A stretch of DNA of 64,000 nucleotides from Mycobacterium sp. (lineage in GTDB: Bacteria > Actinomycetota > Actinomycetes > Mycobacteriales > Mycobacteriaceae), in contig JBOGDC010000003.1 in the NCBI GenBank assembly GCA_050701835.1, positions 28,085 through 92,084 of the forward strand, given 5' to 3'. Positions 10,113 through 61,659 of this stretch are shown here, piece after piece. Each line of letters starts with the position of its first letter. Position 1 is the stretch's first letter. The notes under the pieces are model-generated. The model was not told the origin of the DNA. It searched no databases and saw only the letters and a list, made by a program, of their open reading frames with translations. Position numbers and translations under genes: made by a program.

Positions 10113-10144
10113 GGCCGCGCATTCGAGTGATAGTTTTGGTCTTG

Positions 10145-10340: not shown

Positions 10341-10465
10341 TGACCGCACCGCCCGGTGCGGCCTTCGCCAGCACCGAGGGATCAGCTGGTGGGTAGCGCG
10401 CGTATCCGGCATATCCACTCTCGGCTCTGTCCCGCCCCCGTTGCAGGCGACCCGACGACGCAGGA

Positions 10466-14754: not shown

Positions 14755-17292
<2,538 letters not shown>

Positions 17293-27542: not shown

Positions 27543-29840
<2,298 letters not shown>

Positions 29841-41721: not shown

Positions 41722-42782
41722 AGGTCCGGATTCTCGATCTCGGCGGGCTTGGGTAAGGTCCCGGAGTCTCGCCACACGGTGTTGAAGCGCTCCATCCCCA
41801 CCTTCCCAACCACATGGTCGACGAAGCGCTTGCCACGCGTGTACTGGCGCATCTTGGCGTCCATACCAATGAGTGCGCGGATAATCCGCTGCAGCGGTGG
41901 CTGTTTCCGCGAGCGCCGCGCCTCGAACCGGGACCTGATTACCGACACCGAGGGCACAACCGCCGGGCCCACTGCGTCCATGACATGGTCGGCATGCCCC
42001 TCCAACAGCGTGCCCAGTACCAGCAGACGATCGAGCGCATCCCTACCAATTTCGGACTGCATGGCGCGCAGCAGATCGACGATCCCGCCGTCGCCACCAT
42101 TTCCCTGTTTCTTGGATGAGCGCACAAACTCGGCCAGCCTGCCGAGCATTCCGGCCACATCCTCTTCCTGCTCGTGCGCGAGTGTCGCCAAAGTCCCTGA
42201 CATATAGCCCGACAACCACGGGTTGGCAGAGAACTGCACCCGGTGTGTCACCTCATGCAGGCATACCCACATCCGGAAATCGCCTGGCAGTACTCGAAGT
42301 TGGCGTTCGACTGCGATCACGTTCGGGTACACCAGCAGTAACGCACCTGCTCCGTCAGCAGTGAACGGGTCGTATTGCCCGAGGATGCCCGACGAGACGA
42401 AGGCCAGCACCGCACCGGTTTGAGCTCCGGCGACGCGCCCCGAAAGGAATCCCGTCGCCCCGTCATCGCCGCCGCCAGCCATCAGCCGCATTGACTCGGC
42501 GGCGGCCGCAATCCAGCTGGGGCGGTCCAGGATTCGCGCCTCCGGCACGGCCAGACCGTCGGCCAGGCCGGTGAGCTCACGCACCGGAGCCTCCGCGCGC
42601 CGGGCCGCGTCGCTTAGCTCGGCAATGGCCAGCTGACGGGTGTAGTCGGTGCTGGGCGGTGCTGGGCGCGCCAACTTGGCGCCCACAGTCGCCGCGAACT
42701 CCCAGTTGACCATCCGGCCAACCGTCAACTCGGGACGCTCGGTTGCAACTCCGCCCTGCTCGACCCAGCCCGATTCGACCAT
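41700..42782 (-). CDS. Zinc-dependent metalloprotease-like protein (DUF2342, Rv3626c-like)
   Basis: HEVTHRVQF (HExxH) motif and conserved position between dacB and tilS. The start may instead be MVNWEF (42713). Confidence 0.7.
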   Translation of the reverse strand: MVESGWVEQGGVATERPELTVGRMVNWEFAATVGAKLARPAPPSTDYTRQLAIAELSDAARRAEAPVRELTGLADGLAVPEARILDRPSWIAAAAESMRLMAGGGDDGATGFLSGRVAGAQTGAVLAFVSSGILGQYDPFTADGAGALLLVYPNVIAVERQLRVLPGDFRMWVCLHEVTHRVQFSANPWLSGYMSGTLATLAHEQEEDVAGMLGRLAEFVRSSKKQGNGGDGGIVDLLRAMQSEIGRDALDRLLVLGTLLEGHADHVMDAVGPAVVPSVSVIRSRFEARRSRKQPPLQRIIRALIGMDAKMRQYTRGKRFVDHVVGKVGMERFNTVWRDSGTLPKPAEIENPDLWIARVL

Positions 42783-44179
42783 CAGCTACATCCGCACGAC
42801 CGCAGCACCGCCGCGGTCGTGTCCACGGCGTTCCGCGCCGTCGGTGCAGTCGCCTGGTTCTGCATCAGCGCAAAGGTCAGCACCCGGCCGCTCGCATCGG
42901 TGACCACCCCGGCCAGTGTGTTCACACCGGTGAGGGAGCCAGTCTTGGCCCGTAACCACCCGGCAGCGTTGCGATCTTGGGTAACAAAGCGTTCCGACAG
43001 CGTGCCGCTACCACCTGCGATCGGCAACACGTCCAGGAGCGGACGCAGCTTCAGGTGATCAGGACCGGCAGCCGCCTCGATGACGTCATTCAGAGTGCGC
43101 GCGGTTACCCGGTCCTCCGAGGACAGTCCACTCGAATCGCGCAGCGTCAAACCAGTGAGATCAATTCCGTTGCTTCGTAATTGGGCGGTAACCGCATCGA
43201 CAGTGCCGGTAAAGGACTGCGCTCGACCCGATGCCAACGCCACCTCGCGCCCAATGGTCTCGGCCATGACGTTGTCGGAGGCGTTCATCATCTCTCGCAT
43301 CCGCTCCGTCAGCGGTGCCGACTGAACAGACGCAATGGTTTTCGCCGATGGCGGGGCAGTGTCCAACCGCACCGCGTCGGGGTCAACCCCGAGCGCCGTA
43401 GCGAGCGCGCGGCCCGCGTCCAGCGCCGGTGTGGTGGACCGACGCGAGTCGAAGTCGACGGGCTGTGTGCGTCCGGCATCAAGCATCACGGCCTGGATGG
43501 GTGCGACATCGCCGCCGTCGATATCGGCCGGATCCCATGCCTGCGCCATTGCCGGACCGCCAAACCGGCTGATATCCACCGTGATCGACGTGGCGGAAAC
43601 CCCGGACTTACGCACCTGATCAGCAAGGTCGCTGATGCGCGCGGCGTCGCGGTACCAGGTGTCGGTACCCGGCGGTGCCGCGCTGAGAATCGGATCTCCG
43701 CCGCCGACCAGGGTTACCAAGCCTGGTTGCGCGGCAACGTCGGCCACCACCGAGGTGGTGAGCTTGGCGTCCCTGTCGAGGGTGAGTAAAGCGGCCGCGG
43801 CGGTCAGCACCTTATTCGTGGATGCGGGCACCATCGGCACGGTGGAGCCCTGCTGCCACAGTTCGCGGCCCGTCAGCGCATCGGTCACCCTGCCGGTGAA
43901 CATAGCCAGCGCCGGATCGCGCAGCGCCTTATCGAGTGCCTGTGCCAGACCTGCCTCGGTGGGAATCGGTGCGCTGTCGGAAACCGGCACCACACCAGGT
44001 TTGGGGGTGATCAATGCCGGCTGCGACTCGGCGGCCTGCGACTGCCGCGAAGTCGAGGCCCCGGTGGTCAGCGAAACCACGAGAACCAGCGCAGCGATCG
44101 CCAACACCACCGCGATAGCAAGCAGGATGTGGGTAGAGCGCCGCCAGCCACGCGGATCGAGTGCCCTGGCGGTGACCAT
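42782..44179 (-). CDS. dacB: D-alanyl-D-alanine carboxypeptidase/endopeptidase (PBP4 family, DacB-like)
   Basis: SxxK motif [12 protein letters not shown] motif (NASDNVMAE) and KTG motif (RAKTGSLTG), with an N-terminal TM anchor. Start chosen at MVTARALD to leave a promoter gap to divergent ppa. Confidence 0.85.
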
Positions 44180-44303
44180 GCTTTGCAGAGTATCGCTATC
44201 CTGGTGCGCGCCGGACGAACGCTTGCGCGAACGCCGGCAGACCTGGATGAGCGCTTGCGCAAAGACCGACAGACCAAGTACCACGGACATTCAAGGAGCG
44301 GGT

Positions 44304-46148: not shown

Positions 46149-46691
46149 CTACGCCGCCAACGGCACCCGGTGTGGCAGTAAGGCCAGCACGCGCTGTGCA
46201 ACACAACGGATATCGGTCGACTGCGATACCGGAATCAGGGTCACGCCGTCGGCCACGCCTGCCAGGTAGATATCGGCGAGGAGTCCGGCCAGCCCCTCCG
46301 GCGTACCCGCATAAGACACCGAGGCGGGGGGCGACACAGTCGCGAAATGCTTACGCGCCATTCGAGAATCGGCCTCGATGTGCACGTAAACATCGAGAAT
46401 CACCGCGGCTGACTCCACGTGGGAACCACGGATCGTTTGGCACAACCGCTGGGCCTGTTTGAGGTCGGGAGCACTGACGCGCTCTGTCGCATCGGAACCC
46501 CCGGTCAGTTCGAGCCACTCATCAGGCGTTTCGGCAAATACACGAAACGGATGCGACGGTCGTCGACTCGCTGCTGCCACGGCGCTCACGGTATCGGCCG
46601 CCAAACGACCCTCGCCATCGTTGCGTTCACACCGAACCAAACGAATTACTTCCCGAAATGCTTCCCAGAAAATCGGGCAGCGGGCGTGCAT
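46149..46691 (-). CDS. Hypothetical protein; the C-terminal part resembles the C-terminal segment of LLM-class oxidoreductases (possible gene fragment)
   Basis: YAGTPEGLAGLLADIYLAGVADGVTLIP resembles the GTPE...ADG...L.P ending of luciferase-like monooxygenases, but there is no room for the N-terminal barrel. The 5' end overlaps the upstream gene, so the real start is uncertain. Confidence 0.35.
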   Translation of the reverse strand: MHARCPIFWEAFREVIRLVRCERNDGEGRLAADTVSAVAAASRRPSHPFRVFAETPDEWLELTGGSDATERVSAPDLKQAQRLCQTIRGSHVESAAVILDVYVHIEADSRMARKHFATVSPPASVSYAGTPEGLAGLLADIYLAGVADGVTLIPVSQSTDIRCVAQRVLALLPHRVPLAA

Positions 46692-48027
46692 CCTCGACAG
46701 GGCCTACCTGCCCGTCGCGCTCGGTGTAGCTCAGCGTGGGGCCGCGGTCAACGAGTTCACCGATCGCGTCCACAAGACGTGCGATATCGCTCGCCGTGGT
46801 TCCCAATCCGATGCTGGCGCGGACCGCTCCCGTCGGAGCGCCCAGTCTGGCCAACAGTGGGTGAGCGCAGAACCTGCCATCCCGCACGGCGATGCCGTGT
46901 TCGGCCGACAGGTAGGCGGCAACAACTGACGGTGTGTATCCGGCGACGGTGAAAGACACAATGCCCAGCACGTCACCACCCGCGGGCCAGATGCGCAGGG
47001 TGTCAACGCCTTCGACGGCATCCAGTCCATCACGCAGCTGGGCCGTCAGCAATTCCTCGACATGACTCGCCTCGACGAGGGCCTCCAACGCCTGGCAGGC
47101 TGCAGCCACCGCGGCGACTCCGACCACATTCGGCGTCCCCGCCTCATGCCGCTGCGGACCCGTGAGCCAGTCGGCACCGTCGACGCCTACCTCGCGGACT
47201 GCTCCGCCGCCCGCGAGGTAGGGCCGTGCGGCATCGAGCCAGTCAGATCGCCCCACCAGGACTCCGGCACCGAATGGTGCATACAGCTTGTGCCCGGAGA
47301 AGGCCAGATAGTCGATACCCGATGCCGCCAGGTCAACCCTGCGGTGCGGCACCAGCTGTGCCCCGTCCACCGCGATCCTTGCCCCATGCCGGTGCGCGAG
47401 GGCGGCGAGTTCCGCCAACGGCAGCACCTCGCCGGTGACATTTGAGGCGCCGGTGACGGCCAGTAGTGCTGCGGGCTGCCGTGCCAGTTCCTCGTTCAGC
47501 GCGGACACGGTATCCGCAACGGTGCCGCGGTGCTCCACCACTCGGGCGCCATATCGCTGCCAGGTCAAGAGGTTTGCATGGTGTTCGATGTCCAGCACCA
47601 CCACCTTGGCATGTCGCCGGCTTTCGGGCTCCGTCGTTGGATGTCGCCGGCTTTCGGGCTCCGTCGCGCCCGGCACCGCCGACGCCAGCAGGTTGAGCGA
47701 ATCGGTGGTGTTCCGGGTGAAGATCACCTGGTGGCCGTCGGGGGCTCCGACGAAGCGTGCCACCGTCTCCCGTGCTCCCTCGTAGAGAACCGTGCACACA
47801 CGTGAGGCATATCCGGCCCCGCGGTGCACGCTGGCGTAGTACGGCAGCAGCTCGGTAACCCGGTCCGCGACATCGGAGAGCGCGGGCGCGCTGGCCGCGT
47901 AGTCGAAGTTGGCGTACCTGATCCAGCCACCTTGGGCCAATGGCACTTTGGTATCGGCTCCCACAACGCGTGCGACCGCACGCTCGGACCCTGACTGTTT
48001 GGCCACGGATTCTTTGGACACAGACAT
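46627..48027 (-). CDS. Class V aminotransferase / cysteine desulfurase-like PLP enzyme
   Basis: FDYAASAP, FTRNTTDSLNLL, LDIEHHANLLTW and FSGHKLYAPFGAGVL (PLP lysine) motifs. ATG at 48025-48027. Confidence 0.85.
   Translation of the reverse strand: MSVSKESVAKQSGSERAVARVVGADTKVPLAQGGWIRYANFDYAASAPALSDVADRVTELLPYYASVHRGAGYASRVCTVLYEGARETVARFVGAPDGHQVIFTRNTTDSLNLLASAVPGATEPESRRHPTTEPESRRHAKVVVLDIEHHANLLTWQRYGARVVEHRGTVADTVSALNEELARQPAALLAVTGASNVTGEVLPLAELAALAHRHGARIAVDGAQLVPHRRVDLAASGIDYLAFSGHKLYAPFGAGVLVGRSDWLDAARPYLAGGGAVREVGVDGADWLTGPQRHEAGTPNVVGVAAVAAACQALEALVEASHVEELLTAQLRDGLDAVEGVDTLRIWPAGGDVLGIVSFTVAGYTPSVVAAYLSAEHGIAVRDGRFCAHPLLARLGAPTGAVRASIGLGTTASDIARLVDAIGELVDRGPTLSYTERDGQVGPVEDARPLPDFLGSISGSNSFGSV
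47611..47670. repeat. 2 x 30-bp in-frame tandem duplication inside the aminotransferase gene
   Basis: ATGTCGCCGGCTTTCGGGCTCCGTCG occurs at 47611-47636 and again at 47641-47666 (26/30 identical per unit). It encodes ATEPESRRHP followed by TTEPESRRHA. Confidence 0.9.
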
Positions 48028-48299
48028 GTGACATCCCATCTCACCGGACCCGCCCGGCGAGTCCACGCTTGCCGGCCCCGGTTGGGAACAACCAGGTCGT
48101 CACCTGGAGCACCCCGCCGTGGATGAGCCGCTGGCGCGAAGACCAACGGATTGGAGGAGGGTTGCCGACCAGCTAGCCAGGGCTTATCGCTGGTTCTCAT
48201 GACCTGTGCGCAGTCTGCCCGCCTGCCGCGACCATCGTCAAGCACATTGCGCAGGGTGATTCCAATCCTGATTTTCCGATCTGTGCGCGGTAGGGCAGA

Positions 48300-48412
48300 C
48301 TGGCTAGCGGAGGGGAGTATTCCTTCGCTGCGGTGTCGTCATCACATCGGCCATTGTTGGTCCGGTCGGTGCCGCAGGCCGGTCACCTACCGGCGGAAGA
48401 GACCTCCGGCGT
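48300..48412 (+). promoter_or_regulatory. yybP-ykoY (manganese) type riboswitch in the TerC leader
   Basis: The 5' CGGAGGGGAGUA and 3' AAGAGACCUCCG segments form a P1 stem with the conserved GGGGAGUA and GAGACC elements, about 100 nt apart. A TerC/Alx-family gene downstream is the classic genomic context. Confidence 0.6.
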
Positions 48413-48427
48413 TTTGACGACCGGAGG
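48403..48427 (+). promoter_or_regulatory. RBS-sequestering hairpin (expression platform)
   Basis: CCTCCGG (48403-48409) pairs with CCGGAGG (48421-48427), leaving an 11-nt loop. The 3' arm contains the GGAGG Shine-Dalgarno 7 nt before ATG 48435. The 5' arm overlaps the riboswitch P1 3' strand. Confidence 0.5.
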
Positions 48428-48434
48428 TTATTCA

Positions 48435-49418
48435 ATGCAGGTATCCCAGATCGAATGGATCATCACGCTGGCCGTGACGGTCGCGATCCTGTTGGTCGAT
48501 GTCGTAGTGATCGGTAGACGGCCGCATGAACCTTCGGTCCGGGAAACCGCCACGGCGCTAAGCATCTACCTAGGCCTGGCAGTGGCGTTCGGCCTGTGGG
48601 TGTGGTTCTTCCACGGCAGCCAGTTCGGGCTGGAGTTTTTCGCGGGCTGGCTCACCGAATACAGCCTGTCAGTGGACAACCTGTTCATCTTCTTGATCAT
48701 CATGGCCAGCTTCAAAGTGCCCAGGGTCTATCAGCAGGAAGCTCTGCTGATCGGCATCATTCTGGCGCTGATCTTCCGCGGCATCTTCATCGCGCTCGGC
48801 GCGGTCGCCATCAACGAATTCTCATGGATCTTCTACCTGTTCGGCGCATTCCTGGTGTACACGGCGATCAATCTGGCACGCGACACCGAGCATGACGACG
48901 ACGCCGAAAACACCGTGGTGAAGTTCGCCCGCAAGCACCTGCGAACCATCGACAAGTGGGATGGCCTACGGCTGTGGGTGAAAGACAACAGCACGAACGG
49001 CGCCAGACTTATCACGCCGATGTTCCTGGTAATCGTCGCGTTGGGCACCACCGACCTGCTCTTTGCGCTCGACTCGATTCCGGCCATCTACGGGCTTACC
49101 AAAGAGCCGTATCTGGTTTTCACCGCCAACGTGTTCGCGCTCATGGGCCTGCGGCAGCTGTATTTCCTTCTCGGCGACATGCTCAAGCGTCTGGTGTACC
49201 TGTCGCAGGGGCTGGCCTTCATCCTCTTCTTCATCGGCGTCAAGCTGGTCCTGCATGCACTGCACGAGAATGAGCTGCCGTTCATCAACGGCGGCGAACC
49301 CGTGCACGTCCCCGAGATACCAACGCTCGCAAGCCTCGCCGTGATCGTGGTGACGTTGCTCATCACCACCGCGGCCAGCCTGTATAAGACAAGGGTGCAT
49401 GACGCCCGAGAAGGCTAA
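48435..49418 (+). CDS. TerC/Alx-family integral membrane protein
   Basis: FFAGWLTEYSLSVDNLFIF...DLLFALDSIPAIYG are duplicated TerC motifs. ATG at 48435; the track ORF start at 48333 lies inside the riboswitch. Confidence 0.88.
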   Translation: MQVSQIEWIITLAVTVAILLVDVVVIGRRPHEPSVRETATALSIYLGLAVAFGLWVWFFHGSQFGLEFFAGWLTEYSLSVDNLFIFLIIMASFKVPRVYQQEALLIGIILALIFRGIFIALGAVAINEFSWIFYLFGAFLVYTAINLARDTEHDDDAENTVVKFARKHLRTIDKWDGLRLWVKDNSTNGARLITPMFLVIVALGTTDLLFALDSIPAIYGLTKEPYLVFTANVFALMGLRQLYFLLGDMLKRLVYLSQGLAFILFFIGVKLVLHALHENELPFINGGEPVHVPEIPTLASLAVIVVTLLITTAASLYKTRVHDAREG

Positions 49419-49592
49419 GAGTCAGCACCGGAACACTCCAACGGCCGCTCTGGCAAATTAGACGGCCGTGACCCCACCGCACCCACGCGACCACTTCCGC
49501 GCGGCACCAGGCCCAGTCGCACCCAGACCGATAGGCTCGCTGCGGTACCCCTCCAGGCCCATAAAACCGACGCGGAAATTACGAGGAGAAGC

Positions 49593-52500
49593 GTGACCGG
49601 CCCCGACGAGTCACCCACAAGCCGCGCGCGCGAAGAGGCACCGGATCCGGCGTCTCACCCCGCGCCTCACGAGGGCCCGACCAACCGTATTCCCCCGCAA
49701 TACCTCCTGGGGAAGTCCGCCGCACCGGCGCGCACCCTCATCGACATCCTCTACTCGACGGCCGCGGAGAATCCCGATGCGCCCGCCATCGACGACGGCA
49801 CCGTGCAGCTCACGTACTCCGAACTCATCGTCGATGTCGAGGCGAGCGTCGAGTGGCTGAGCACGCGCGGTATCGGGCGCGGCGATCGGGTCGGCATCCG
49901 AATGCCCTCCGGCAGCTACTCGCTCTATGTGGCAATCCTCGCGACCCTGGCCGCGGGGGCCGCGTACGTTCCCGTGGACGCCGATGATCCCGATGAGCGT
50001 GCGGCGCTGGTTTTCGGCGAGGCCGAGGTGGCCGCCGTCATCACGCCCGATGGGCTGGTTCGCGGTCCGGGGTCGTCGCGAGGTTGGCGCGCCACGAAAC
50101 CGACACCGCGCGACGATGCGTGGATCATCTTTACATCGGGTTCAACCGGTACCCCGAAGGGTGTGGCGGTGACGCACCGCAACGCCGCCGCCTTCGTCGA
50201 CGCCGAAGCGCAAATGTTCTTGCTGGACAGCCCAATCGGCCCGGAAGACCGGGTGCTTGCCGGACTTTCCGTGGCCTTCGACGCCTCCTGTGAGGAGATG
50301 TGGCTCGCGTGGCGCTACGGCGCCTGCCTGGTGCCCGCGCCTCGTTCCCTGGTGCGCAGCGGCATGGATCTGGGACCGTGGCTGGTATCCCGCGATGTCA
50401 CCGTGGTGTCGACGGTGCCTACCCTCGCGGCGCTCTGGCCGGCGGAAGCACTGGAGGCAGTCCGCCTGCTGATCTTCGGCGGTGAGGCCTGCCCACCGGA
50501 CCTTGCCGAGCGGCTCGCTACCGGAGAAGACGGTGCCGCACGCGAGGTGTGGAATACCTATGGCCCCACCGAGGCCACCGTGGTGGCGTGCGCGGCGAGG
50601 TTGGACGGGATGAGCCCGGTCAGCATCGGATTACCGCTACCTGGTTGGGATTTGGCGGTCGTGGATGCCCAGGGCAACCAGGTGGCGTACGGCGAGATCG
50701 GCGAGCTGGTGATCGGTGGCGTCGGGCTGGCCAAATACCTCGACCCGGACAAAGACGCCGAAAAGTACGCGCCGCTGCACACTTTGGGTTGGTCGCGCGC
50801 CTACCGCAGTGGTGACCTGGTGCGCTTGGAACCTGACGGACTGTATTTTCAGGGCCGCGCCGACGACCAGGTCAAGGTCGGGGGCCGCCGCATCGAACTC
50901 GGTGAAGTGGATGCGGCGCTGGTTAACCTGCCCGGAGTAAGCGGCGGCGCCGCCACGGTGCGCAAGACCGCGAGCGGCACCCCGCTGCTGGTGGGCTACA
51001 TCGCCAGTGCCGACCCCAACTTCGATATTGCCGCAGCCCGCGCAAGCCTGGCCGAATCGCTTCCCGCCGCACTGGTGCCGCGACTGGTCAAACTGGACGA
51101 ACTACCTACGCGTACATCGGGAAAGGTGGATCGTAACGCGCTGCCATGGCCGCCACCGGGAGCCAGCGCCGATGACGACGCACCCGAGCTAGGCGGCACC
51201 ATGGGCTGGCTCGCCGGATTGTGGCGCGACGTACTGGCGGCTCCGATCGACGGGCCCGAAGCCGACTTCTTCGCCCTCGGCGGCGGATCGCTCTCCGCGG
51301 CACAGCTGGTCGCGGCATTGCGCCAGCGCTACCCGCAGGTGACCGTCGCAAACCTGTACGACCAGCCGCGGCTCGGGTCGCTGGCCACGTATCTGGACGA
51401 GCTGGCACCTCCTGTCGCAGTCGAACCGCGGATCGTCAAACCGGTACCGCGCCTGGCCGAGCTGGCGCAACTTGTTGCGACGGTTCCACTGACCACGCTC
51501 ACCGGTCTGCAATGGGTGACGTGGCTTGCCCTGGCCAACAACGTATTTGCGACGTTTAGTCGGGTCCCATGGCTGGTCACCGTGAACTGGTGGGTGGTAT
51601 TGGCGGCATTCGTGCTCTTCATCACGCCCCTGGGTCGCATGAGCATTACCGTCATCGGAGCCCGGCTGCTGTTATCCGGAGTCAAGCCCGGCACGTACGC
51701 CCGTGGTGGAAGCGTGCATCTGCGCGTGTGGATTGCCGACCGGCTCGCTACCGCCAGCGGCGCCGAGAACCTTTCCGGCGCACCGTGGATGGTGTACTAC
51801 GCCCGGGCCCTGGGTGCGCGCGTAGGCAACGGGGTCGATCTGCATTCGTCGCCGCCGGTGACCGGGTGGCTCACCCTTGGTCACCGCAGTTCCGTCGAGC
51901 CTGAGGTCGACCTGTCCGGGCATTGGGTGGATGGTGACAAATTCCATGTCGGACCGATCATTATCGGGGACGACGCCACCGTGGGTGCCCGCACCACGCT
52001 GTTTCCCGGCTCGGTCATCGGTAAGAACGCCGACGTGGCACCGGGTTCCGGTGTCACCGGACGGGTAAAGAATGGTCAGTACTGGAAGGGATCGCCGGCG
52101 ATCAAGTCCGGTAAGGCACGTCATCCCTGGCCCGACTATCGTCCGCCCCGTGCGGCGCAATGGATTGCGATCTACGGCATAACCTCCGTCCTGATCGGTG
52201 GACTGCCGCTATTGGCGCTGGCCGCCGGTTTGGCCGCGGTGGCGTTCGGCATCAGGGACGCCGCCACTATCTGCGAAGCCGTTGTGCCTGCGCTCATCTG
52301 GACGCCCGGCGCGGCATTGGTCAGCGTGGTCATCTACGCCGGCATCACCGTGGTACTGGTGCGGCTGCTGTCGATCGGCGTGCACGAGGGATATCACCCG
52401 GTCCGCAGCAGGCAGGGATGGCAACTATGGGGCACCGAACGCCTGATGGACGCCGCCCGTAACTACCTTTTCCCCATCTATGCGAGCCTGCTGACTCCAT

Positions 52501-53624
52501 GGTGGTTGCGCATTCTGGGCGCGAAAATTGGCAAGGACACCGAGATTTCGACGGCACTGGTGATGCCGAAGTTCACCGAGGTGGACGACGGGGCCTTCCT
52601 GGCCGACGACACCATGGTCGCCTCCTACGAGCTGGGCGGCGGCTGGATTCACATCGCCAAGGCCCGGATCGGCAAGCGTGCCTTCCTGGGTAATTCCGGT
52701 ATCACCCAGCCGGGCCGCAAGGTCCCCAATGACGCGTTGGTCGCCGTCCTGTCCGCCACTCCGCATAAGGCGAAATCAGGTTCGTCGTGGATCGGCAGCC
52801 CACCGAAGCGGCTGCGCCGGAAGGCCGATGACGCGGATGCCACGCGTACATTCGCGCCGCCGTTCCGGCTCAAGATCATGCGTTCGATCGTCGAAACCTG
52901 CCGAATCATCCCGATCATCGTCACGTTCGGGATCGGCGTCGGGGTGCTGTTGACCCTGCAGACGATCGCCATCCGATCCAATTTCTGGGTGGCCGCGGCG
53001 TTGAGCGGTGTCGTGATGCTGGCTGCCGGGCTGGTGGCGGGCGCGATCAGCGTCGTAGCCAAATGGGTGGTGGTGGGCCGCACAAAGGCCGTCGAGAAAC
53101 CGCTGTGGTCGTCGTTCGTCTGGCGCAATGAGGTCGCCGATACTTTCGTGGAAACGGTTGCCGCCGTGTGGTTTGCGCGCGCCGCCTCGGGGACCGTAAT
53201 GCAGATCTGGTGGCTTCGGAGTCTGGGCGCCAAGATTGGCCGCGGTGTGTGGTGCGAGACCTACTGGTTGCCCGAGGCTGATCTGGTGACGCTGGGCAAG
53301 GGTGCCACCGTGAACCGCGGCTGCGTGGTGCAAACGCATCTCTTCCACGACCGGATCATGCGGATGGACACCGTCACCCTCGGCGAGGGTGCCACTCTGG
53401 GACCACATTGTGTGGCGCTGCCGGCAGCCGAGCTCGGCGCGGGAGCCACCGTCGGTCCCGCCTCGCTGGTGGTCCGCGGTGACGTGGTCCCCCCGTCGAC
53501 CCGGTGGCAGGGCAACCCGATTTCGCCATGGGGCAAGCTGGACCCAATGGCACCTAAGAAATCCAAGGCCGGCAGGGGCCCAAAAGGTAAGGGCCCGCAT
53601 GACGAGGACACAGCGGCCGAATGA
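49593..53624 (+). CDS. Pls-type single-module non-ribosomal peptide synthetase (A-T followed by three membrane-separated hexapeptide-repeat domains)
   Basis: 1343 aa with a GTG start after GAGGAG. Adenylation motifs A1-A10 are all present: LTYSEL, AGAAYVPVD, FTSGSTGTPKGV, FDAS, NTYGPTE, GELVIGGVGLAKYL, YRSGDL, GRADDQVKVGGRRIELGEV, SGKVDR. Carrier motif FFALGGGSLS. No C or TE domain. The C-terminal roughly 720 aa alternate hydrophobic helix pairs with left-handed-helix-like repeat segments. Confidence 0.9.
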   Translation: MTGPDESPTSRAREEAPDPASHPAPHEGPTNRIPPQYLLGKSAAPARTLIDILYSTAAENPDAPAIDDGTVQLTYSELIVDVEASVEWLSTRGIGRGDRVGIRMPSGSYSLYVAILATLAAGAAYVPVDADDPDERAALVFGEAEVAAVITPDGLVRGPGSSRGWRATKPTPRDDAWIIFTSGSTGTPKGVAVTHRNAAAFVDAEAQMFLLDSPIGPEDRVLAGLSVAFDASCEEMWLAWRYGACLVPAPRSLVRSGMDLGPWLVSRDVTVVSTVPTLAALWPAEALEAVRLLIFGGEACPPDLAERLATGEDGAAREVWNTYGPTEATVVACAARLDGMSPVSIGLPLPGWDLAVVDAQGNQVAYGEIGELVIGGVGLAKYLDPDKDAEKYAPLHTLGWSRAYRSGDLVRLEPDGLYFQGRADDQVKVGGRRIELGEVDAALVNLPGVSGGAATVRKTASGTPLLVGYIASADPNFDIAAARASLAESLPAALVPRLVKLDELPTRTSGKVDRNALPWPPPGASADDDAPELGGTMGWLAGLWRDVLAAPIDGPEADFFALGGGSLSAAQLVAALRQRYPQVTVANLYDQPRLGSLATYLDELAPPVAVEPRIVKPVPRLAELAQLVATVPLTTLTGLQWVTWLALANNVFATFSRVPWLVTVNWWVVLAAFVLFITPLGRMSITVIGARLLLSGVKPGTYARGGSVHLRVWIADRLATASGAENLSGAPWMVYYARALGARVGNGVDLHSSPPVTGWLTLGHRSSVEPEVDLSGHWVDGDKFHVGPIIIGDDATVGARTTLFPGSVIGKNADVAPGSGVTGRVKNGQYWKGSPAIKSGKARHPWPDYRPPRAAQWIAIYGITSVLIGGLPLLALAAGLAAVAFGIRDAATICEAVVPALIWTPGAALVSVVIYAGITVVLVRLLSIGVHEGYHPVRSRQGWQLWGTERLMDAARNYLFPIYASLLTPWWLRILGAKIGKDTEISTALVMPKFTEVDDGAFLADDTMVASYELGGGWIHIAKARIGKRAFLGNSGITQPGRKVPNDALVAVLSATPHKAKSGSSWIGSPPKRLRRKADDADATRTFAPPFRLKIMRSIVETCRIIPIIVTFGIGVGVLLTLQTIAIRSNFWVAAALSGVVMLAAGLVAGAISVVAKWVVVGRTKAVEKPLWSSFVWRNEVADTFVETVAAVWFARAASGTVMQIWWLRSLGAKIGRGVWCETYWLPEADLVTLGKGATVNRGCVVQTHLFHDRIMRMDTVTLGEGATLGPHCVALPAAELGAGATVGPASLVVRGDVVPPSTRWQGNPISPWGKLDPMAPKKSKAGRGPKGKGPHDEDTAAE
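49725..51155 (+). other. Adenylation domain of the NRPS (approximate limits)
   Basis: Spans core motifs from LTYSEL (aa ~73) to SGKVDR (Lys511, nt 51123-51125). Confidence 0.8.
51195..51410 (+). other. Thiolation (carrier protein) domain of the NRPS (approximate limits)
   Basis: WRDVL...DFFALGGGSLSAAQLVAALRQRYPQVTVANLYDQPRLGSLATYL. The putative phosphopantetheine serine is Ser566 (nt 51288-51290). Confidence 0.8.
51465..53532 (+). other. Membrane-embedded tri-partite C-terminal region (TM pair, C1, TM pair, C2, TM pair, C3) of the NRPS (approximate limits)
   Basis: Three helix pairs: LVATVPLTTLTGLQWVTWLALANNVF / WWVVLAAFVLFITPLG; IAIYGITSVLIGGLPLLALAAGLAAVAF / ALVSVVIYAGITVVLVRLL; IIPIIVTFGIGVGVLLTLQ / FWVAAALSGVVMLAAGLVAGAISVVA. 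They separate three related soluble segments that each begin W..R.LGA+(V/I)G. Confidence 0.7.
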
Positions 53625-54973
53625 CCAAACCAGGTAAAAAGGCAGCCAAAAAGCTCCCCCCAAGGCCGCCGATTATCGACCCCTACCTGCCACAGAACGG
53701 CAACTACGGATACCGGGTGTCGCGCTACGAGCTGGACCTTGAGTACAAGGTCGCCATCAACCGGCTGACCGGCACCGCGACAATCACTGCCGTCACGCTC
53801 GCCACACTCAAGGAGTTCACCCTCGATCTCGCCGATACCCTCGGAGCCTCGAAGGTGACCGTGAATGGCAGGCGCCCAACACATTTCGGACACCGATCCG
53901 GAAAGATCACCATCAAACTGGTCACCGCCATCCCCGCGGGGGCGGCCATGACGATCGTGATCCGTTACGGCGGCTCGCCACGCCCCATCAACAGCACGTG
54001 GGGAGACGTCGGGTTCGAAGAGCTGTCCAATGGCGCGCTGGTGGCCGGGCAGCCGAACGGCGCGGCGTCCTGGTTCCCCTGTGACGACCACCCCAGCTCC
54101 AAGGCGAGCTACCGATTCGTCATCAGCTGCGACAGCCCCTACTGCGTTGTCTCGAATGGGGAACTCATATCCCGGCGCGTCCGGGCCGCCCACACCACCT
54201 GGACCTACGAACAGCCCGAGCCGATGGCGCCCTACCTGGCGACACTGCAGATCGGGGACTACCAGATGGTCAAGCTCGCCAAGAACCCCGTGTCGATGAA
54301 CGCCGCGCTGCCGTCACGTCTACGCGATCGCTTCGAACATGACTTCGGCAGGCAGCCGCAGATGATGAAGCTGTTCATCAAGCAGTTCGGCCCGTACCCC
54401 TTTGCCGCGGGATACACCGTCGTTGTCGCCGATGACGATCTCGACATTCCTCTTGAAGCACAAAGTATTTCGGTCTTTGGAGCCAACCATTGCGATGGGG
54501 CGCGGCACTCTGAGCGGCTCGTCGCACACGAGCTGGCGCACCAGTGGTTCGGCAATAGCGTCACCGCGCGCCGCTGGCGCGACATTTGGCTCCACGAGGG
54601 GTTCGCCTGTTATGCCGAATGGCTGTGGTCCGAGGAGTCCGGCGGCCCGTCCGCCGATTCCCGTGCGCGCCACTATCACCAGAAGCTGAAGGACCTCCCG
54701 CAGGACTTGATACTGGCCGACCCCGGCCCCCAACTGATGTTCGACGATCGTGTGTACAAACGCGGAGCGCTGACACTGCACGCCTTGCGTTTGCGTCTCG
54801 GTGATACGAAATTCTTTGCGCTACTACAAGACTGGACCACCCGATACCGGCACAGCACCGTCATCACCGACGACTTCACCGGCCTGGCCGCCGCATACTC
54901 CGATGAATCGCTGCGACCGCTGTGGTCCGCATGGCTATACGAGAAACAACTTCCCCCCTTGGGCCGGAAGTGA
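53621..54973 (+). CDS. M1-family zinc metallopeptidase (aminopeptidase N-like), apparently cytoplasmic
   Basis: HELAHQWFGN followed 18 residues later by E in WLHEGFACYAE (HExxH-x18-E). The upstream GQPNGAASWFPCDD block sits where the exopeptidase motif is found in actinobacterial M1 enzymes. There is no hydrophobic signal sequence. The ATG overlaps the NRPS stop. Confidence 0.9.
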   Translation: MTKPGKKAAKKLPPRPPIIDPYLPQNGNYGYRVSRYELDLEYKVAINRLTGTATITAVTLATLKEFTLDLADTLGASKVTVNGRRPTHFGHRSGKITIKLVTAIPAGAAMTIVIRYGGSPRPINSTWGDVGFEELSNGALVAGQPNGAASWFPCDDHPSSKASYRFVISCDSPYCVVSNGELISRRVRAAHTTWTYEQPEPMAPYLATLQIGDYQMVKLAKNPVSMNAALPSRLRDRFEHDFGRQPQMMKLFIKQFGPYPFAAGYTVVVADDDLDIPLEAQSISVFGANHCDGARHSERLVAHELAHQWFGNSVTARRWRDIWLHEGFACYAEWLWSEESGGPSADSRARHYHQKLKDLPQDLILADPGPQLMFDDRVYKRGALTLHALRLRLGDTKFFALLQDWTTRYRHSTVITDDFTGLAAAYSDESLRPLWSAWLYEKQLPPLGRK

Positions 54974-56265
54974 CCGACGCCGGCCCGACTGAGTATGAGC
55001 CTCTTCACCCAAGCGGCTCATCGGTCCGCTCCAGCGTCGCGCGGATCGGCGCCGCCACTGCCATCAGCGCGATCTGCGGCTACACCGTGCTGTATCTGGC
55101 GGCACGAGAGCTCGGTCCCGCACTGTTCTCGGTGTTCGGAGTCTTCTGGGGCGCTTTCGGTTTGGTCACCGGTGCGGCTAACGGGCTGTTGCAGGAAACC
55201 ACCCGCGAAGTGCGGCTTTCGCTAGCACAGCGGGAACGATCGCCACTGTCAACCACTCTGCCGATCAGAATCGCCTTCACGTTCGCGATCGGCTCTGTCG
55301 TCGGGATCGTCGGCACCGCACCACTATGGGCATCGCATGTATTCGCCGAGTTCCGTTGGCTCAGCGTCGCATTGCTTGCCGGTGGGCTCGCCGGGTTCTG
55401 CATGCACGCGACCACACTGGGCGCGCTGGCCGGATCAAACCGCTGGACCCAGTATGGCGTTCTGATGGTGACCGACGCCGGAATCCGACTGGTGGTGGCC
55501 GTTGTCACGTTCGCAGCCACCCTCGGACTCGTCGGCTATCTCTGGGCCACGGTTGCCGGATCGATGTCCTGGCTACTACTCACGTTCGTATCGAAACCCA
55601 CTCGCGCCGCACTGAAAGTGCCCGCCCTCGTAGACACCATGGAGTTCCTGCGCGGCGCCCGGCACTCGATCGCCGCGGCCGCGGCCAGCGCCGTCCTGGT
55701 GATGGGGTTCCCGGTGCTGTTGCAGTCGACGACGGGCGATCTCGGCACCACCGGAGGTGTGGTGATCCTGGCCGTCACGCTGACCCGCGCACCGCTGTTA
55801 GTGCCGCTCACGGCCTTACAGGGCAACCTCATCGCCCATTTTGTGGATGAACGGGATCGGCGCCTGCATGCCCTGCTGACACCTGCGGTCATCATCATCG
55901 GAGTCGGGGTCGCGGGCGTCGCACTCGCAGGATCCATCGGCCCCTGGCTACTGCGGACGGCATTCGATCCGGCATATCAGGCGGGCGGACCGCTTTTGGG
56001 TTGGTTGACCGCCGGCGCGGTGATGATCGCCCTGTTGACCCTGACCGGAGCGGCCACCGTCGCACATGCCCGTCACCGCGCCTACTCGGCCGGGTGGGTA
56101 GGTGCCACGGTGGTGTCGGCGCTGCTATTGCTGCTGCCTCTGGGGTTGGAGGAACGGACGGTGATCGCGTTGATCGGCGGACCCGTCGTCGGAATCGTGG
56201 TGCATGTCGCCGCACTTGCGTTCTGGAATGACAAGCCGGGGACGCTTGACCCCGTCGTCGACTAA
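54970..56265 (+). CDS. Polytopic membrane protein, Wzx/MOP-superfamily flippase/exporter-like
   Basis: About 12-14 hydrophobic helices. The N-terminal pattern ...YLAARELGPALFSVFGVFWGAFGLVTGAANGLLQETTREV resembles polysaccharide-biosynthesis (PST/Wzx) proteins. The GTG start overlaps the M1 stop (GTGA at 54970-54973). Family call is tentative. Confidence 0.6.
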   Translation: MTDAGPTEYEPLHPSGSSVRSSVARIGAATAISAICGYTVLYLAARELGPALFSVFGVFWGAFGLVTGAANGLLQETTREVRLSLAQRERSPLSTTLPIRIAFTFAIGSVVGIVGTAPLWASHVFAEFRWLSVALLAGGLAGFCMHATTLGALAGSNRWTQYGVLMVTDAGIRLVVAVVTFAATLGLVGYLWATVAGSMSWLLLTFVSKPTRAALKVPALVDTMEFLRGARHSIAAAAASAVLVMGFPVLLQSTTGDLGTTGGVVILAVTLTRAPLLVPLTALQGNLIAHFVDERDRRLHALLTPAVIIIGVGVAGVALAGSIGPWLLRTAFDPAYQAGGPLLGWLTAGAVMIALLTLTGAATVAHARHRAYSAGWVGATVVSALLLLLPLGLEERTVIALIGGPVVGIVVHVAALAFWNDKPGTLDPVVD

Positions 56266-56284: not shown

Positions 56285-57670
56285 TCAGATCCCCGCCGCG
56301 TGCTCCAACTCCACAAGCGCGGCCTCGAGTCCGTCGGCCATCTCGTCGATATCCGCGGCGACCTCCGGCGTGGTGACAAACCCGAAATCCATGTAATCCA
56401 GGTACGAGAAGCAGGTGATATTGAGGGCCACATCCATCACCGGCGGACCGAGCGGCAACATCTTCTCAAGCTGAGCTCCGGCCATGTACAGCGGAAACTG
56501 TGGGCCCGGCACATTCGACAGCACCAGGTTGATCGGAGCCAGGTTCTTCGATAGGCCGCTCGCCGTGTATGCGCGCGCCGCGAGCTGCAGCAGGCCCGGC
56601 GGGGTGGTGTCGGTGAGCCCCATGATCTGGTGCGCCGACATGGCTTTGGCCATTTCCTTTGCGCCCTGGGTACCTTCGTAGATGGCCCCGATCCGCTCGG
56701 CCGGGTCTTCGATATTGGTGGCCAGCGAAACCGTCATTGAGCTGATCTGGTTTCCGACCGTTCCATCGGTGTCCTCTGAGCGCACCGACACCGGTATCTG
56801 CACGATGAGTGGTTCTACCGGTAGTTCATCGCGTTTGAGCAGGTAGTCGCGGACGGCACCGGCAACGATGGCCAGCACCACATCGTTGACCTTGACGCCG
56901 AAAGCGTCCTTCAATGCCTTCACACGTGCGAGGTCCAGCCGTCCCCCGGCGATCCGGCGATGCGGACCCACATGCGCATTGAACCGGGTGTGCGGAGCCT
57001 CGAAGAATCCGGGCGGCTTGCGATCCATGCCGAAGACCGCCAGCTGCTGGCGCACCGTCTGTTCGACCAGCCTGGCAATCCGGTACGGCGTCTTCACGCC
57101 GATATTGACCAAAGCGCTCAACAGGATTCGCTCAATCCCGGGCTGGCCCTCACCCACCAACGATCCGACGGTGGCCTCGGGCGCCGGGCGGGGTTCGGGG
57201 GTGATATCCATCAGAATCTCACCCAGGCCGGCACCGGAAACACCGTCGACGATGGCATGGTGCATCTTGGTCAGTGTCGCGACGCGACCCCCCTCGACAC
57301 CCTCGATGATCCACAGCTCCCATAGCGGCCGCGACTTGTCCAGCTTGTACGACATCAACCGACCGGCCAGCTCTTCGAGCTCCTTGCGACCGCCGGGCGC
57401 GGGCACCCCTATCCGGCGGATGTGGAAGTCGGGATCTAGATCCTCGTCCTCCACAAACCACGGACGGTCCAGGCCCAGCGGGACGTCCATGATCCGCCAG
57501 CGCAGCTGCGGCATCTGCGGCAATCGCTCGATGATCAGCTCACGCACCCGCTCGAAGCTGTACTCCGGCGCATTCGTGGGGTCGTATACGGACAACCCAC
57601 CAATGTGCATGTGCCAGCCCGCCGTTTCGGCATGCCAGAACGCCGCATCTACCCCAGACAGCCGTTTCAT
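56285..57670 (-). CDS. Wax ester synthase / diacylglycerol acyltransferase (WS/DGAT)
   Basis: [15 protein letters not shown]..., catalytic motif [10 protein letters not shown], and C-terminal NVPGP. ATG at 57668-57670. Confidence 0.9.
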
Positions 57671-57776
57671 GGCGCAAACACTAATGCCGTGGCTCGTCCC
57701 TTCCACTGAAATGGAAGGACTCATCGGCGACGGGTGTGAAGTCCGCTGACGGGCTACCGGTGCTACCTTGATCCCA

Positions 57777-58471
57777 GTGAGCAACACCGGTAACAATGAC
57801 GTCTGGCTCGTCATCCCCGCCTACAACGAGGGACCAGTCATCGCCGACGTCATCGCCGCGGCGCTTGGCACCTTCCCCAACATCGTCTGCGTGGACGACG
57901 GCAGCGCCGACCGCAGCGCCGCGCTCGCGCATGGCGCGGGGGCGCATGTGGTCCGCCATCCCGTCAACATGGGCCAAGGCGCGGCCATCCAGACCGGCGT
58001 TGAATACGCACGCACACAGCCCGGTGCACAGATCTTCGTCACATTCGATGCCGACGGGCAACACCAGGTCAAGGATGTGGTGGCCATGGTGGACAGGTTG
58101 CGGCTAGAACCACTCGACATCATCATCGGCACCCGGTTCGGTGCCGGGTCCGCGCCGGGGCATGTGCCGATGATCAAGCGGGTAGTGCTGAAAACCGTTG
58201 TGCTGCTGAGCCCCCGCACCCGCCGCCTCAACCTGACCGACGCTCACAACGGTCTACGCGTCTTCAACCGAACCGTCGCCAATGGCCTCAACATCACCAT
58301 GAACGGGATGGGCCATGCCAGCGAGTTCATCGCGTTGATCGCCGAAAACCATTGGCGAGTGGCCGAACAACCCGTCGACATCCTCTACACCGAATACTCG
58401 ATGGCAAAGGGGCAGTCGCTGCTCAACGGAGTCAACATCATGTTCGACACCGCCTTCCGCAGGAGGCTTCC

Positions 58472-58475
<4 letters not shown>
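57777..58475 (+). CDS. GT2-family polyprenyl-phosphate glycosyltransferase (Rv3631/PpgS-like)
   Basis: [30 protein letters not shown] and GTRF motifs. The start is GTG at 57777 or TTG at 57768. Confidence 0.85.
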
Positions 58476-59821
<1,346 letters not shown>

Positions 59822-59877
59822 CTACCGACCGTGCCTGTTGCTCTTCGCGCAAGCGCTCATCGATAAAGTCTGACCCA

Positions 59878-61659
59878 ATGCCCTTCCGACTTCCTCCCCA
59901 GATGAACCGTGTTGCCGTCGCGGCCGCGGCCCTCATCGCGGCGCACCTCGTGGTGCGCGGTCTGCTGGCGTTCGGAGGCGATTTCTACTGGGATGACCTG
60001 ATCTTGGTCGGCCGCGCCGGCACGCAGGGCCTGTTCTCGCCGTCGTACCTGTTCGACGATCACGACGGGCATGTCATGCCCGCGGCTTTCCTGCTCGCGG
60101 GAACCATCACCAAGCTGGCGCCGCTGAACTGGTTCTGGCCGGCACTGAGCCTGCTGATCCTGCAGGCATTGGGGTCCTTGGCGCTGCTACGGGCATTGTG
60201 GGTAATCCTTGGCTGGCGTCCGGTGCTGCTGGCCCCGCTCACCTTCGCCCTGTTCACACCCCTGGCAATACCCGGATTCACCTGGTGGGCCGCCGCGCTG
60301 AACTCGCTGCCGATGCTGACCGCGATGTGCTGGTTCGTCGGCGACGCGGTCCTGCTGGATCGCACCGGAAACCGCAAGTATGCGGCGACGGCGATGGTGG
60401 CGTTCCTCGGCGGACTGCTGTTCTTCGAGAAATCGGTGGTCATTCCGTTTGTGGCGTTCGCGGTGGTCGCGCTCCTGGCCTATCTACGCGAGGGCAGTTG
60501 GTCGGTGCTGACGTGCACCTGGCGGCGGAGCGCACTGTTGTGGATACCCGCGGGAGTTCTGACCGCCGCGTGGATGGCGCTCTATCTGGTGGTGGTGGAC
60601 CAAAAGCGATGGAGCACCGACCTGTCGATGACGTGGTCGCTGCTACAACGTTCGTTCACGCACGGTGTGCTGCCCGGCTTGGTGGGCGGCCCGTGGCGTT
60701 GGGATCGCTGGGTGCCGAGCTCCCCCTGGGCCGAGCCGTCGTCGGCGGTGATCTGGCTCGGGGCGGTCGCGCTCGCGGCGACGATCGCTCTCACCTGTTT
60801 CCGTAAGCAGCGGCTCGGGGCGGTGTGGTTCACGCTGCTGGGCTATCTGGTAGCCAGCCAAGTGCCGATCTATCTCATGCGTTCGTCCGCGTTCACGGCG
60901 CTGCTGCTCGCACAGACACTGCGGTATCTGCCAGATCTAGTGGTGGTGGCGACGCTCCTCGCAGCGGTCGGGCTCACCGCCCCAAACCGTCGAGGGACCG
61001 GATTCCTGGACAGTTCCCCGCGGCGCACCCTGGTGGTCGCCTTGGCGTTGTCTCTGTTCGTGGCGAGCAGCCTGATATCGACCGTGAGCTATCTGCGTAG
61101 CTGGCGCAATAACCCCGCCTCGCCCTATATCGCCAATGTCAAAGAGTCGCTGGCCGCGGTTGCGGACGGGCCCGCGGTACTCGACCAGGATGTCGATCCG
61201 CTGGTATTGCAGAACGTGGTGCGGCCGGAGAATCTCCTGAGTCATATGTTCGCCCTGGTCCGTCCCCGGCCGGAGATCGCTTCCACCACAACGTACTTAC
61301 GAATGCTTGATCGCAACGGCCGCCTGCTGGACGCACAGGTTACGTGGGTGCGTGCCGTCACCGAGGGGCCGGCGCCCGGCTGCGGTTACCTGGTGCAATC
61401 CACCGAGACCATGCCCCTGACCGGACCATTGCTGCCCGCCGACTGGATCGTCGAATTGAACTATTTGGCCAATACCGAGGGTGCGGTGTGGGCGTCGCTG
61501 ACCAATGGCCCGCGGGTCAAGGTTCCGGTGCGTCCTGGGCTCAACCGGGTGTTCATCAGACTCCCAGGTTCGGGAAATGCACTTACCCTGCAACCGATTA
61601 CGCAGTCGTTATCGCTGTGCGTCGCCGTTGGTCCGGTCGGGGCGCTCGCTCCCCGGTAG
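59878..61659 (+). CDS. Large polytopic membrane protein with C-terminal soluble domain (Rv3635-like; GT-C-like architecture)
   Basis: 593 aa. About 10-12 N-terminal TM helices including an early FYWDDL motif, then a roughly 180-aa hydrophilic C-terminus. The function call rests on architecture and synteny only. Confidence 0.65.
   Translation: MPFRLPPQMNRVAVAAAALIAAHLVVRGLLAFGGDFYWDDLILVGRAGTQGLFSPSYLFDDHDGHVMPAAFLLAGTITKLAPLNWFWPALSLLILQALGSLALLRALWVILGWRPVLLAPLTFALFTPLAIPGFTWWAAALNSLPMLTAMCWFVGDAVLLDRTGNRKYAATAMVAFLGGLLFFEKSVVIPFVAFAVVALLAYLREGSWSVLTCTWRRSALLWIPAGVLTAAWMALYLVVVDQKRWSTDLSMTWSLLQRSFTHGVLPGLVGGPWRWDRWVPSSPWAEPSSAVIWLGAVALAATIALTCFRKQRLGAVWFTLLGYLVASQVPIYLMRSSAFTALLLAQTLRYLPDLVVVATLLAAVGLTAPNRRGTGFLDSSPRRTLVVALALSLFVASSLISTVSYLRSWRNNPASPYIANVKESLAAVADGPAVLDQDVDPLVLQNVVRPENLLSHMFALVRPRPEIASTTTYLRMLDRNGRLLDAQVTWVRAVTEGPAPGCGYLVQSTETMPLTGPLLPADWIVELNYLANTEGAVWASLTNGPRVKVPVRPGLNRVFIRLPGSGNALTLQPITQSLSLCVAVGPVGALAPR

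Follow-up and report, generated by a model that had tools for sequence, protein, structure and literature searches.

What do three closely packed genes in a mycobacterium make, and do all three serve the same purpose? The question is raised by positions 49593-56265 of the 64,000-nucleotide stretch of Mycobacterium sp. DNA analysed here (the window), where three open reading frames (ORFs) follow each other on the same (+) strand. A first-pass annotation had read them as a single unit that synthesises, trims and exports a cationic homopolymer. Our results make it probable that gene 1 is the mycobacterial orthologue of pls and gene 2 that of pldII, and that gene 3 is more likely a gene of a cell-envelope block that stands beside this pair by synteny. 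Genes 1 and 2 are filed as pls and pldII orthologues because the family match, the specificity code and the pairing with a peptidase agree with published operons. By analogy with these operons, the product is most likely epsilon-poly-L-lysine (below, epsilon-PL). The three genes are:

49593..53624, + strand: pls orthologue, a 1343-amino-acid (aa) membrane-bound single-module non-ribosomal peptide synthetase (NRPS), predicted epsilon-PL synthetase (domain matches, match to PDB entry 7wew, ratio of non-synonymous to synonymous substitution rates, dN/dS)
53621..54973, + strand: pldII-like two-domain M1 zinc metallopeptidase, 450 aa (PF17900 and PF01433, synteny with pls)
54970..56265, + strand: 12-helix membrane protein of the MOP superfamily, 431 aa, orthologue of M. 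tuberculosis Rv3630 (AlphaFold, Foldseek, Rv3630 peptide, synteny)

Architecture and predicted specificity of the synthetase

Three regions can be delimited in the product of gene 1:

49758..51152, + strand: adenylation (A) domain, predicted to be L-lysine-specific, about aa 56-520 (identity to the Pls A domain; Stachelhaus code)
51207..51395, + strand: carrier (thiolation, T) domain, aa 539-601, with Ser566 in LGGGSLS as the predicted phosphopantetheine site (PF00550, E 2.7e-12)
51465..53522, + strand: Pls/PosA polymerisation domain, aa 625-1310, in the order TM1-2, C1, TM3-4, C2, TM5-6, C3, where TM stands for transmembrane helix and C for a soluble segment (TIGR02353, hydropathy, AlphaFold, Foldseek)

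Pfam recognises AMP-binding (aa 56-381, E 5e-62), PP-binding (aa 539-601) and Hexapep (aa 789-823) in the synthetase, and found neither a Condensation nor a Thioesterase domain. By Pfam, the enzyme is thus a single A-T module without a conventional condensation, epimerisation or thioesterase domain, as is characteristic of the Pls/PosA family, and the first-pass description of the ORF agrees with this. The NCBIfam model of the amino-acid adenylation domain passes its cutoff, the core motifs SGSTGTPKG, YRSGD, GRADDQVKVGGRRIELGE and SGKVDR are all visible, and the carrier motif around Ser566 is nearly invariant among 41 homologues.

The amino acid activated by this domain had been left open between lysine, ornithine (Orn), diaminobutyrate (Dab) and diaminopropionate (Dap). 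Our results narrow the choice to one. The best match of the synthetase in the PDB is 7wew, the A domain of S. albulus Pls, with 645 bits, as compared to 360 bits for the next NRPS and about 193 bits for the ornithine-activating domain of PosA (8g95-8g98). Over 490 aligned residues the A domain is 63% identical to that of S. albulus Pls. The ten Stachelhaus positions were taken from an alignment anchored on Pls motifs and compared with the reference codes in Supplementary Table 2 of PMC10522769. They read DAESIGTVVK, which is identical to the lysine code of S. albulus Pls and has the Asp, Ala and Glu at positions 1, 2 and 3 that mark lysine-type Pls enzymes. The same code occurs in the window and in all 80 related actinobacterial loci (the best 80 of about 600 matches, not a complete census), and is unchanged in all 82 sequences compared. 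Codes for Orn (DMEHNGTVSK), Dab, Dap and beta-Lys differ from it at position 2 and elsewhere. L-lysine is the predicted and almost certain substrate of the A domain because the code is identical to that of Pls and constant across the 80 loci. The specificity code speaks against Orn, Dab or Dap, which we reject as substrates.

The C-terminal half of the protein identifies the family. TIGR02353, the NCBIfam model now named "Pls/PosA family non-ribosomal peptide synthetase", matches with 733 bits against a curated cutoff of 423 bits, and aa 625-1310 cover profile positions 2-695 of 695. By hydropathy the protein has six hydrophobic helices, paired at about aa 621-678, 866-926 and 1105-1155, which is the topology that had been expected. 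The soluble segments C1, C2 and C3 are 23-26% identical to each other pairwise (BLASTP E 1e-7, 8e-10 and 1e-5). In the AlphaFold model of aa 610-1343 (pTM 0.77) a unit made of a long helix hairpin, helices and a short-strand beta-helix occurs three times, and the hairpins match the positions given by hydropathy. The best Foldseek matches of this model are acetyltransferases with a left-handed beta-helix, for example CysE, galactoside acetyltransferase and Vat(D). Six predicted TM helices in three pairs, inserted between three acetyltransferase-like domains, are typical of Pls/PosA enzymes. The A-T-(TM pair-C)x3 layout proposed from the first look at the sequence is therefore borne out by the family model, hydropathy, the AlphaFold model and the mutual similarity of C1-C3. 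One detail stood only in part: the motif W..R.LGA[KR][VI]G, said to open all three segments, is exact at aa 970 and 1206, whereas C1 carries it only in the relaxed form WMVYYARALGARVG. No full-length Pls-like structure was found in the PDB by sequence or fold search.

S. albulus Pls (BAG68864; 7wew) thus shares with the window synthetase the layout without condensation or thioesterase domains, the A domain and the lysine code, and both enzymes have a downstream, translationally coupled peptidase gene. Note that the likeness is drawn from the A domain and the architecture. Unlike S. albulus, the host has mycolic acids and an outer mycomembrane, and the C-terminal tail of its synthetase is rich in Lys and Gly. 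PosA of Acinetobacter baumannii, which makes delta-poly-L-ornithine, and the Dab, Dap and beta-Lys synthetases belong to the same TIGR02353 family. The model of PosA likewise shows a predicted pseudo-trimeric beta-helix domain on six membrane helices. These enzymes differ from the window synthetase in their distant A domain (193 bits for PosA against 645 for Pls), in their code and in a gene context without a peptidase.

Two expression signals can be suggested upstream of pls:

49584..49589, + strand: Shine-Dalgarno sequence GAGGAG, read from the sequence 3 nt 5' of the GTG start of pls and kept in the window, M. franklinii and M. abscessus
49532..49537, + strand: possible -10 hexamer TAGGCT, inside the conserved block GACCGATAGGC-TCGCTGCGG

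The block GACCGATAGGC-TCGCTGCGG is identical in the same three genomes while the remaining intergenic region diverges, and TAGGCT may be the -10 element of the pls promoter. A riboswitch or leader RNA upstream of pls was not detected, even at E<=1.

The peptidase partner and the predicted polymer

Gene 2 is joined to pls by an overlap of stop and start codons (ATGA, 53621-53624). Its product matches PF17900 (M1 N-terminal domain) and PF01433 (catalytic domain) above their cutoffs. In the alignment of 80 sequences the zinc site HEXXH-x18-E (HELAH in the window), the catalytic Tyr and the motifs WLHEGFA and VYKRGA are conserved. The nearest relative of known structure is a 474-aa two-domain M1 protease (6a8z/6iff), and the protein scores far under the NCBIfam equivalog cutoffs for PepN and LTA4H. 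The GXMEN exopeptidase motif of classical M1 aminopeptidases is absent and is replaced by P[LIV]EA[QM] in 80/80 aligned sequences (PLEAQ in the window). This replacement suggests, as far as a motif can, an endo-type action like that of PldII. Neither a signal peptide nor a membrane anchor or N-terminal hydrophobic segment was found in the window peptidase or its 79 orthologues, and the earlier description of a signal-less M1 zinc peptidase is thereby correct.

The pairing of the two genes is widely conserved. Peptidase homologues beside pls were located by tblastn across the 80 loci. In 77 of them an M1 peptidase homologue (50-95% identity) lies downstream of pls, directly after it in nearly all cases. 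These loci span Mycobacteriaceae, Rhodococcus, Nocardia, Tsukamurella, Dietzia, Kribbella, Amycolatopsis and others. An operon with a pldII-type peptidase directly downstream, here seen as the ATGA overlap and the recurrence of the pair, is the mark of the Pls subgroup. The pair is also found in genome GCA_043203765.1, taken as Streptomyces-like on account of a chaplin-domain gene some 2 kb upstream of the pls locus; the M1 peptidase that follows the pls homologue there is 51% identical to the window peptidase. The pls homologue of that genome (locus L082, 10001-13876) appears in the gene calls as two ORFs (707 and 563 aa) ahead of the peptidase gene, and is either a frameshifted pseudogene or an assembly error.

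A polymer-degrading peptidase gene near pls in S. albulus had been mentioned by the first-pass annotation, and the literature identifies it. According to PMC9223678, the product of S. albulus pldII is a metallopeptidase of endo type that breaks down epsilon-PL and protects its producer; the gene adjoins pls and is translationally coupled to it (see also PMC8117764). The window peptidase resembles PldII in that a zinc metallopeptidase gene lies immediately downstream of pls and overlaps it. In Corynebacterium variabile, pls and a peptidase gene also form an operon, and the Pls of this species, 51% identical to that of S. albulus, yields epsilon-PL of 26-35 residues when expressed in Streptomyces coelicolor (PMC8117764).

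Could the synthetase make another diamino-acid polymer, only very short oligomers, or transfer lysyl groups onto an envelope acceptor? The Pls/PosA family does include Orn, Dab, Dap and beta-Lys polymerases, the product has not been observed in mycobacteria, and the pls locus abuts cell-envelope genes. We nevertheless regard such alternatives as improbable. The lysine code of the window enzyme is that of Pls and not one of the other four, pairing with a pldII-type peptidase is reported to be specific to pls contexts, and the Corynebacterium orthologue, although more divergent, makes authentic epsilon-PL (PMC8117764).

If the product is epsilon-PL, its synthesis may be pictured from the Streptomyces enzyme. 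The A domain would activate L-lysine as lysyl-AMP, and the lysyl group would be loaded on the phosphopantetheine arm at Ser566 of the carrier domain. The C-terminal domain, with its three beta-helix repeats presumably arranged as a pseudo-trimer that the three helix hairpins hold at the membrane, would then repeatedly transfer lysyl to an acceptor, either free lysine or the growing chain, itself free, by way of the epsilon-amino group of this acceptor. In this way an isopeptide-linked polycation could be released without a thioesterase. The M1 peptidase, predicted to be cytoplasmic, most likely hydrolyses the polymer, as PldII does, for self-protection or trimming.

The pls-pldII pair is a well-described system that standard annotation already recognises in mycobacteria, and it is not surprising to specialists. 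We presume that pls is absent from M. tuberculosis H37Rv, and this presumption conflicts with an "M. tuberculosis" entry, PLV54557.1. Supplementary Table 2 of PMC10522769 lists that entry and predicts a Lys code for it. In NCBI records the homologues from mycobacteria already bear the name "Pls/PosA family NRPS", and antiSMASH-type surveys find NAPAA clusters in 218 of 263 Nocardia genomes. The novelty in mycobacteria that had been claimed for this locus is reduced by the NCBI names, by the database entry and by the Corynebacterium orthologue, from a genus of the same order, that makes epsilon-PL (PMC8117764). What stands of the claim is that the polymer itself is unreported from mycobacteria in the literature searched.

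The third gene and the cell-envelope block

The stop codon of the peptidase gene and the start of gene 3 overlap as GTGA (54970-54973), so both stop/start overlaps that had been pointed out at this locus are real. GTG 54970, and not the listed 54922, is the probable start of gene 3 because it forms this overlap and because the resulting 431 aa fit the homologues (414-430 aa). The AlphaFold model (pLDDT 83.7, pTM 0.84) has 12 membrane helices and predicts the MOP fold with its two six-helix lobes. Foldseek relates the model to MATE, WzxE and MurJ (TM-scores 0.66-0.73), with MATE proteins as the best matches. Of 51 PDB fold matches at E<=0.001, 50 were listed, and every one of these is a MATE, Wzx, MurJ or other MOP-family protein. 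The description of the gene as Wzx/MOP-like therefore holds at the level of the fold. Sequence searches place it outside the curated MOP families (MatE, Polysacc_synt, MurJ): gene 3 has no Pfam match at E<=10 and no NCBIfam match. Residue conservation and a profile were built on 67 diverse homologues; three of these 67 have marginal Pfam matches to Polysacc_synt (best E 0.0015), and the 67-member profile found nothing among PDB sequences.

Gene 3 can be connected to M. tuberculosis. The published Rv3630 peptide LTRAPLLVPLTAMQGNLIAH matches aa 271-290 at 19/20 positions and is an exact match to the consensus of close homologues. Rv3630 adjoins Rv3631, which the literature identifies as PpgS, the polyprenyl-phospho-N-acetylgalactosamine synthase, with Rv3632 as its small partner. 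The sizes given there for Rv3630, Rv3631 and Rv3632 (43, 26 and 13 kDa) agree with those of the window proteins, which have 431, 235 and about 133 aa. An independent model also describes Rv3630 as MATE-like, and the protein has been linked to pyrazinoic-acid resistance mutations. Gene 3 is thus like Rv3630 in size, in its MATE-like fold, in the peptide and in its place upstream of a PpgS-like family 2 glycosyltransferase (GT2) gene and a DUF2304 gene. It is unlike Rv3630 in being fused onto the end of a pls-pldII operon.

Does the MOP protein belong to the poly-lysine system? A homologue of gene 3 lies behind pldII in 25 of the 77 pls-pldII loci and is missing there in the other 52. Co-occurrence with pls-pldII, as would be expected of a dedicated exporter, is therefore not what we find; gene 3 goes with the GT2/DUF2304 block instead. 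In 17/25 loci with gene 3, genes for a PpgS-like GT2 and a DUF2304 protein share its strand and are found within a few kb, and in 13/25 (all of the Mycolicibacterium type) they stand directly behind gene 3, within about 130 nt. They are usually followed by an epimerase gene and then by a gene for a membrane protein of about 590 aa. The whole block corresponds to M. tuberculosis Rv3630-Rv3635. In Mycolicibacter engbaekii the pls-pldII pair comes after the Rv3635-like gene of about 590 aa, and no MOP gene follows it.

The charged residues that are invariant across the gene 3 homologues are R79, R173 and R273, all three of them within predicted membrane helices. MurJ and Wzx, the flippases of lipid-linked sugars, typically have cavities lined with Arg, while cation-exporting MATE proteins use acidic residues. 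The substrate of gene 3 is probably anionic, lipid-linked or phosphate-bearing and not poly-lysine. Because of the synteny, the orthology with Rv3630, the invariant arginines and the absence from most pls-pldII loci, we place gene 3 functionally with the envelope block. Judged from its neighbours and its sequence, it is most likely a part of the adjacent PpgS-like/DUF2304/epimerase/Rv3635-like group.

The first-pass annotation had instead drawn the three genes together as one dedicated unit, in which the MOP protein would export poly-lysine, or oligomers trimmed by the peptidase, across the plasma membrane. We think this unlikely, and the evidence is divided as follows. Gene 3 lies on the same strand as pldII and overlaps it, and the 25 loci with a MOP homologue behind pldII include distant ones from Dietzia (39% identity), Williamsia and Speluncibacter. 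MOP transporters of the MATE type export organic cations, MATE proteins are the closest folds to gene 3, and no export route for epsilon-PL is known. On the other hand, the pls-pldII loci without a MOP gene include Rhodococcus, Nocardia, Tsukamurella, Kribbella, Amycolatopsis, slow-growing Mycobacterium and Mycolicibacter (the case of M. engbaekii is described above), and the Streptomyces-like genome GCA_043203765.1 also has none beside its pls-peptidase pair. Where gene 3 is present, GT2 and DUF2304 genes usually follow directly, its orthologue Rv3630 adjoins Rv3631/PpgS in M. tuberculosis, and its invariant membrane residues are arginines and not the acidic residues expected for binding a polycation. 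Co-transcription of gene 3 with pls-pldII is likely because of the stop/start overlap, and for this reason the exporter model retains a small share of our confidence. In our preferred reading gene 3 most likely serves the envelope block although it is probably co-transcribed with pls-pldII, and its membership of the poly-lysine system is doubtful.

In genera that lack the MOP gene, a search downstream of pldII for another conserved exporter found none, the ORF clustering being swamped by spurious high-GC ORFs. The neighbours in these genera are genus-specific: Nocardia has an alpha/beta-hydrolase-like ORF, and Rhodococcus has a multi-helix membrane ORF together with a regulator-like ORF.

We can also imagine, as a rather remote idea, that in rapid growers and the M. 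abscessus group the fusion of pls-pldII before the Rv3630/PpgS/Rv3632 block created one envelope-charge module. Here the MOP protein would export poly-lysine or trimmed oligomers and so tune the surface charge of a pathogen together with the cationic galactosamine modification. Returning to the placement of gene 3 in the envelope block, the analysis gives a context to Rv3630, an uncharacterised membrane protein of M. tuberculosis: a MOP fold, invariant membrane arginines and a position beside the PpgS pathway. To our knowledge no flippase has been identified for the galactosamine pathway of PpgS. An Rv3630-type protein is a candidate for moving polyprenyl-phospho-N-acetylgalactosamine across the membrane.

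In the window the block itself occupies 57768-61659, with genes for a PpgS-like GT2, a DUF2304 protein, an epimerase (- strand) and a 593-aa protein without a Pfam match. It matches the Rv3631-Rv3635 arabinogalactan-galactosamine region of M. tuberculosis and is also present downstream of the MOP gene in loci L001-L014, L025 and L030. A gene for a wax-ester synthase/diacylglycerol acyltransferase (WS/DGAT; 56285-57814, - strand, TIGR02946 492 bits) is wedged between the MOP gene and the GT2 gene. This insertion is shared by the window, M. franklinii and M. abscessus and is absent at this place from the other loci with a MOP gene behind pldII.

Conservation and surroundings of the locus

The nearest locus is that of Mycobacteroides franklinii (92% identical as protein, 84% as nucleotides). 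The gene order class-V aminotransferase, TerC, pls, M1 peptidase, MOP and WS/DGAT recurs in M. abscessus, and synteny is kept across Mycobacteroides and Mycolicibacterium. The window thus stems from another Mycobacteroides species, which belongs to the M. abscessus/chelonae group. Compared with M. franklinii and M. abscessus, at dS of 0.7-0.9, pls has a dN/dS of 0.05, pldII one of 0.03 and the MOP gene one of 0.08-0.11. Low dN/dS, unremarkable GC content and conserved synteny indicate that the genes are vertically inherited and under purifying selection. Horizontal transfer was considered and rejected on the same GC content and synteny.

Several points weigh against our interpretation of the three genes. 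Full-text searches of the literature found no report of epsilon-PL or of any other cationic homopolymer from any mycobacterium. The orthology of the peptidase with PldII rests on conserved position, Pfam family and published descriptions; moreover, the window peptidase has no signal or anchor, whereas PldII is described as acting outside, on the outer side of the membrane. The 4 nt shared by pldII and gene 3 suggest co-expression and leave room for an export role. Finally, C. variabile itself has no detectable epsilon-PL or Pls protein under laboratory conditions (PMC8117764), and for this reason the pls locus may be silent in the window host as well.

That the locus is a silent or decaying relic without current function is, in our judgement, very improbable. 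The lack of expression in C. variabile and the split pls copy of the Streptomyces-like genome would agree with decay. In the window, however, the ORFs are intact and all catalytic motifs are present, dN/dS stays at 0.03-0.11 for the three genes, and their order is conserved across two genera. An active locus would mean that epsilon-PL, a potent polycationic antimicrobial that is used industrially, is made by members of the M. abscessus group and by many environmental mycobacteria. Effects on competition in biofilms and water systems, on envelope charge and on host interactions would then be possible.

Upstream of pls, a gene for a TerC/Alx-family membrane protein (48333-49418, + strand, TIGR03718 368 bits) lies just before the operon. 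It is on the same strand as pls in Mycobacteroides and on the opposite strand in Mycolicibacterium loci. No yybP-ykoY or other riboswitch was detected before the TerC gene. Further upstream, a full-length SAM-IV riboswitch (48060-48204, - strand) scores 90.5 bits against a gathering score of 38 and lies directly upstream of an ORF for a class-V aminotransferase/SufS-like cysteine desulfurase (46627-48066, - strand). The true start of the desulfurase lies further downstream because the listed GTG at 48066 overlaps the aptamer; in M. abscessus the protein is called with 431 aa. Many Rhodococcus and Nocardia loci encode a homologue of this aminotransferase/desulfurase, about 60% identical, on the strand opposite to pls and upstream of it.

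The window also encodes a ClpC-type ATPase (14755-17382, - strand), FtsH (27543-29840, - strand) and an S13 D-Ala-D-Ala carboxypeptidase (42782-44290, - strand). Because these genes are present we regard the window as a conserved core-chromosome region, which we take to correspond to Rv3596c-Rv3635 of M. tuberculosis. Near its beginning, a cobalamin riboswitch (10131-10353, + strand, 100.7 bits) precedes genes for a FecCD-type permease and a periplasmic binding protein (ORFs 10466-11524 and 12297-13286, + strand). The riboswitch-led genes of 10131-13286 are probably an ABC system for the uptake of vitamin B12.

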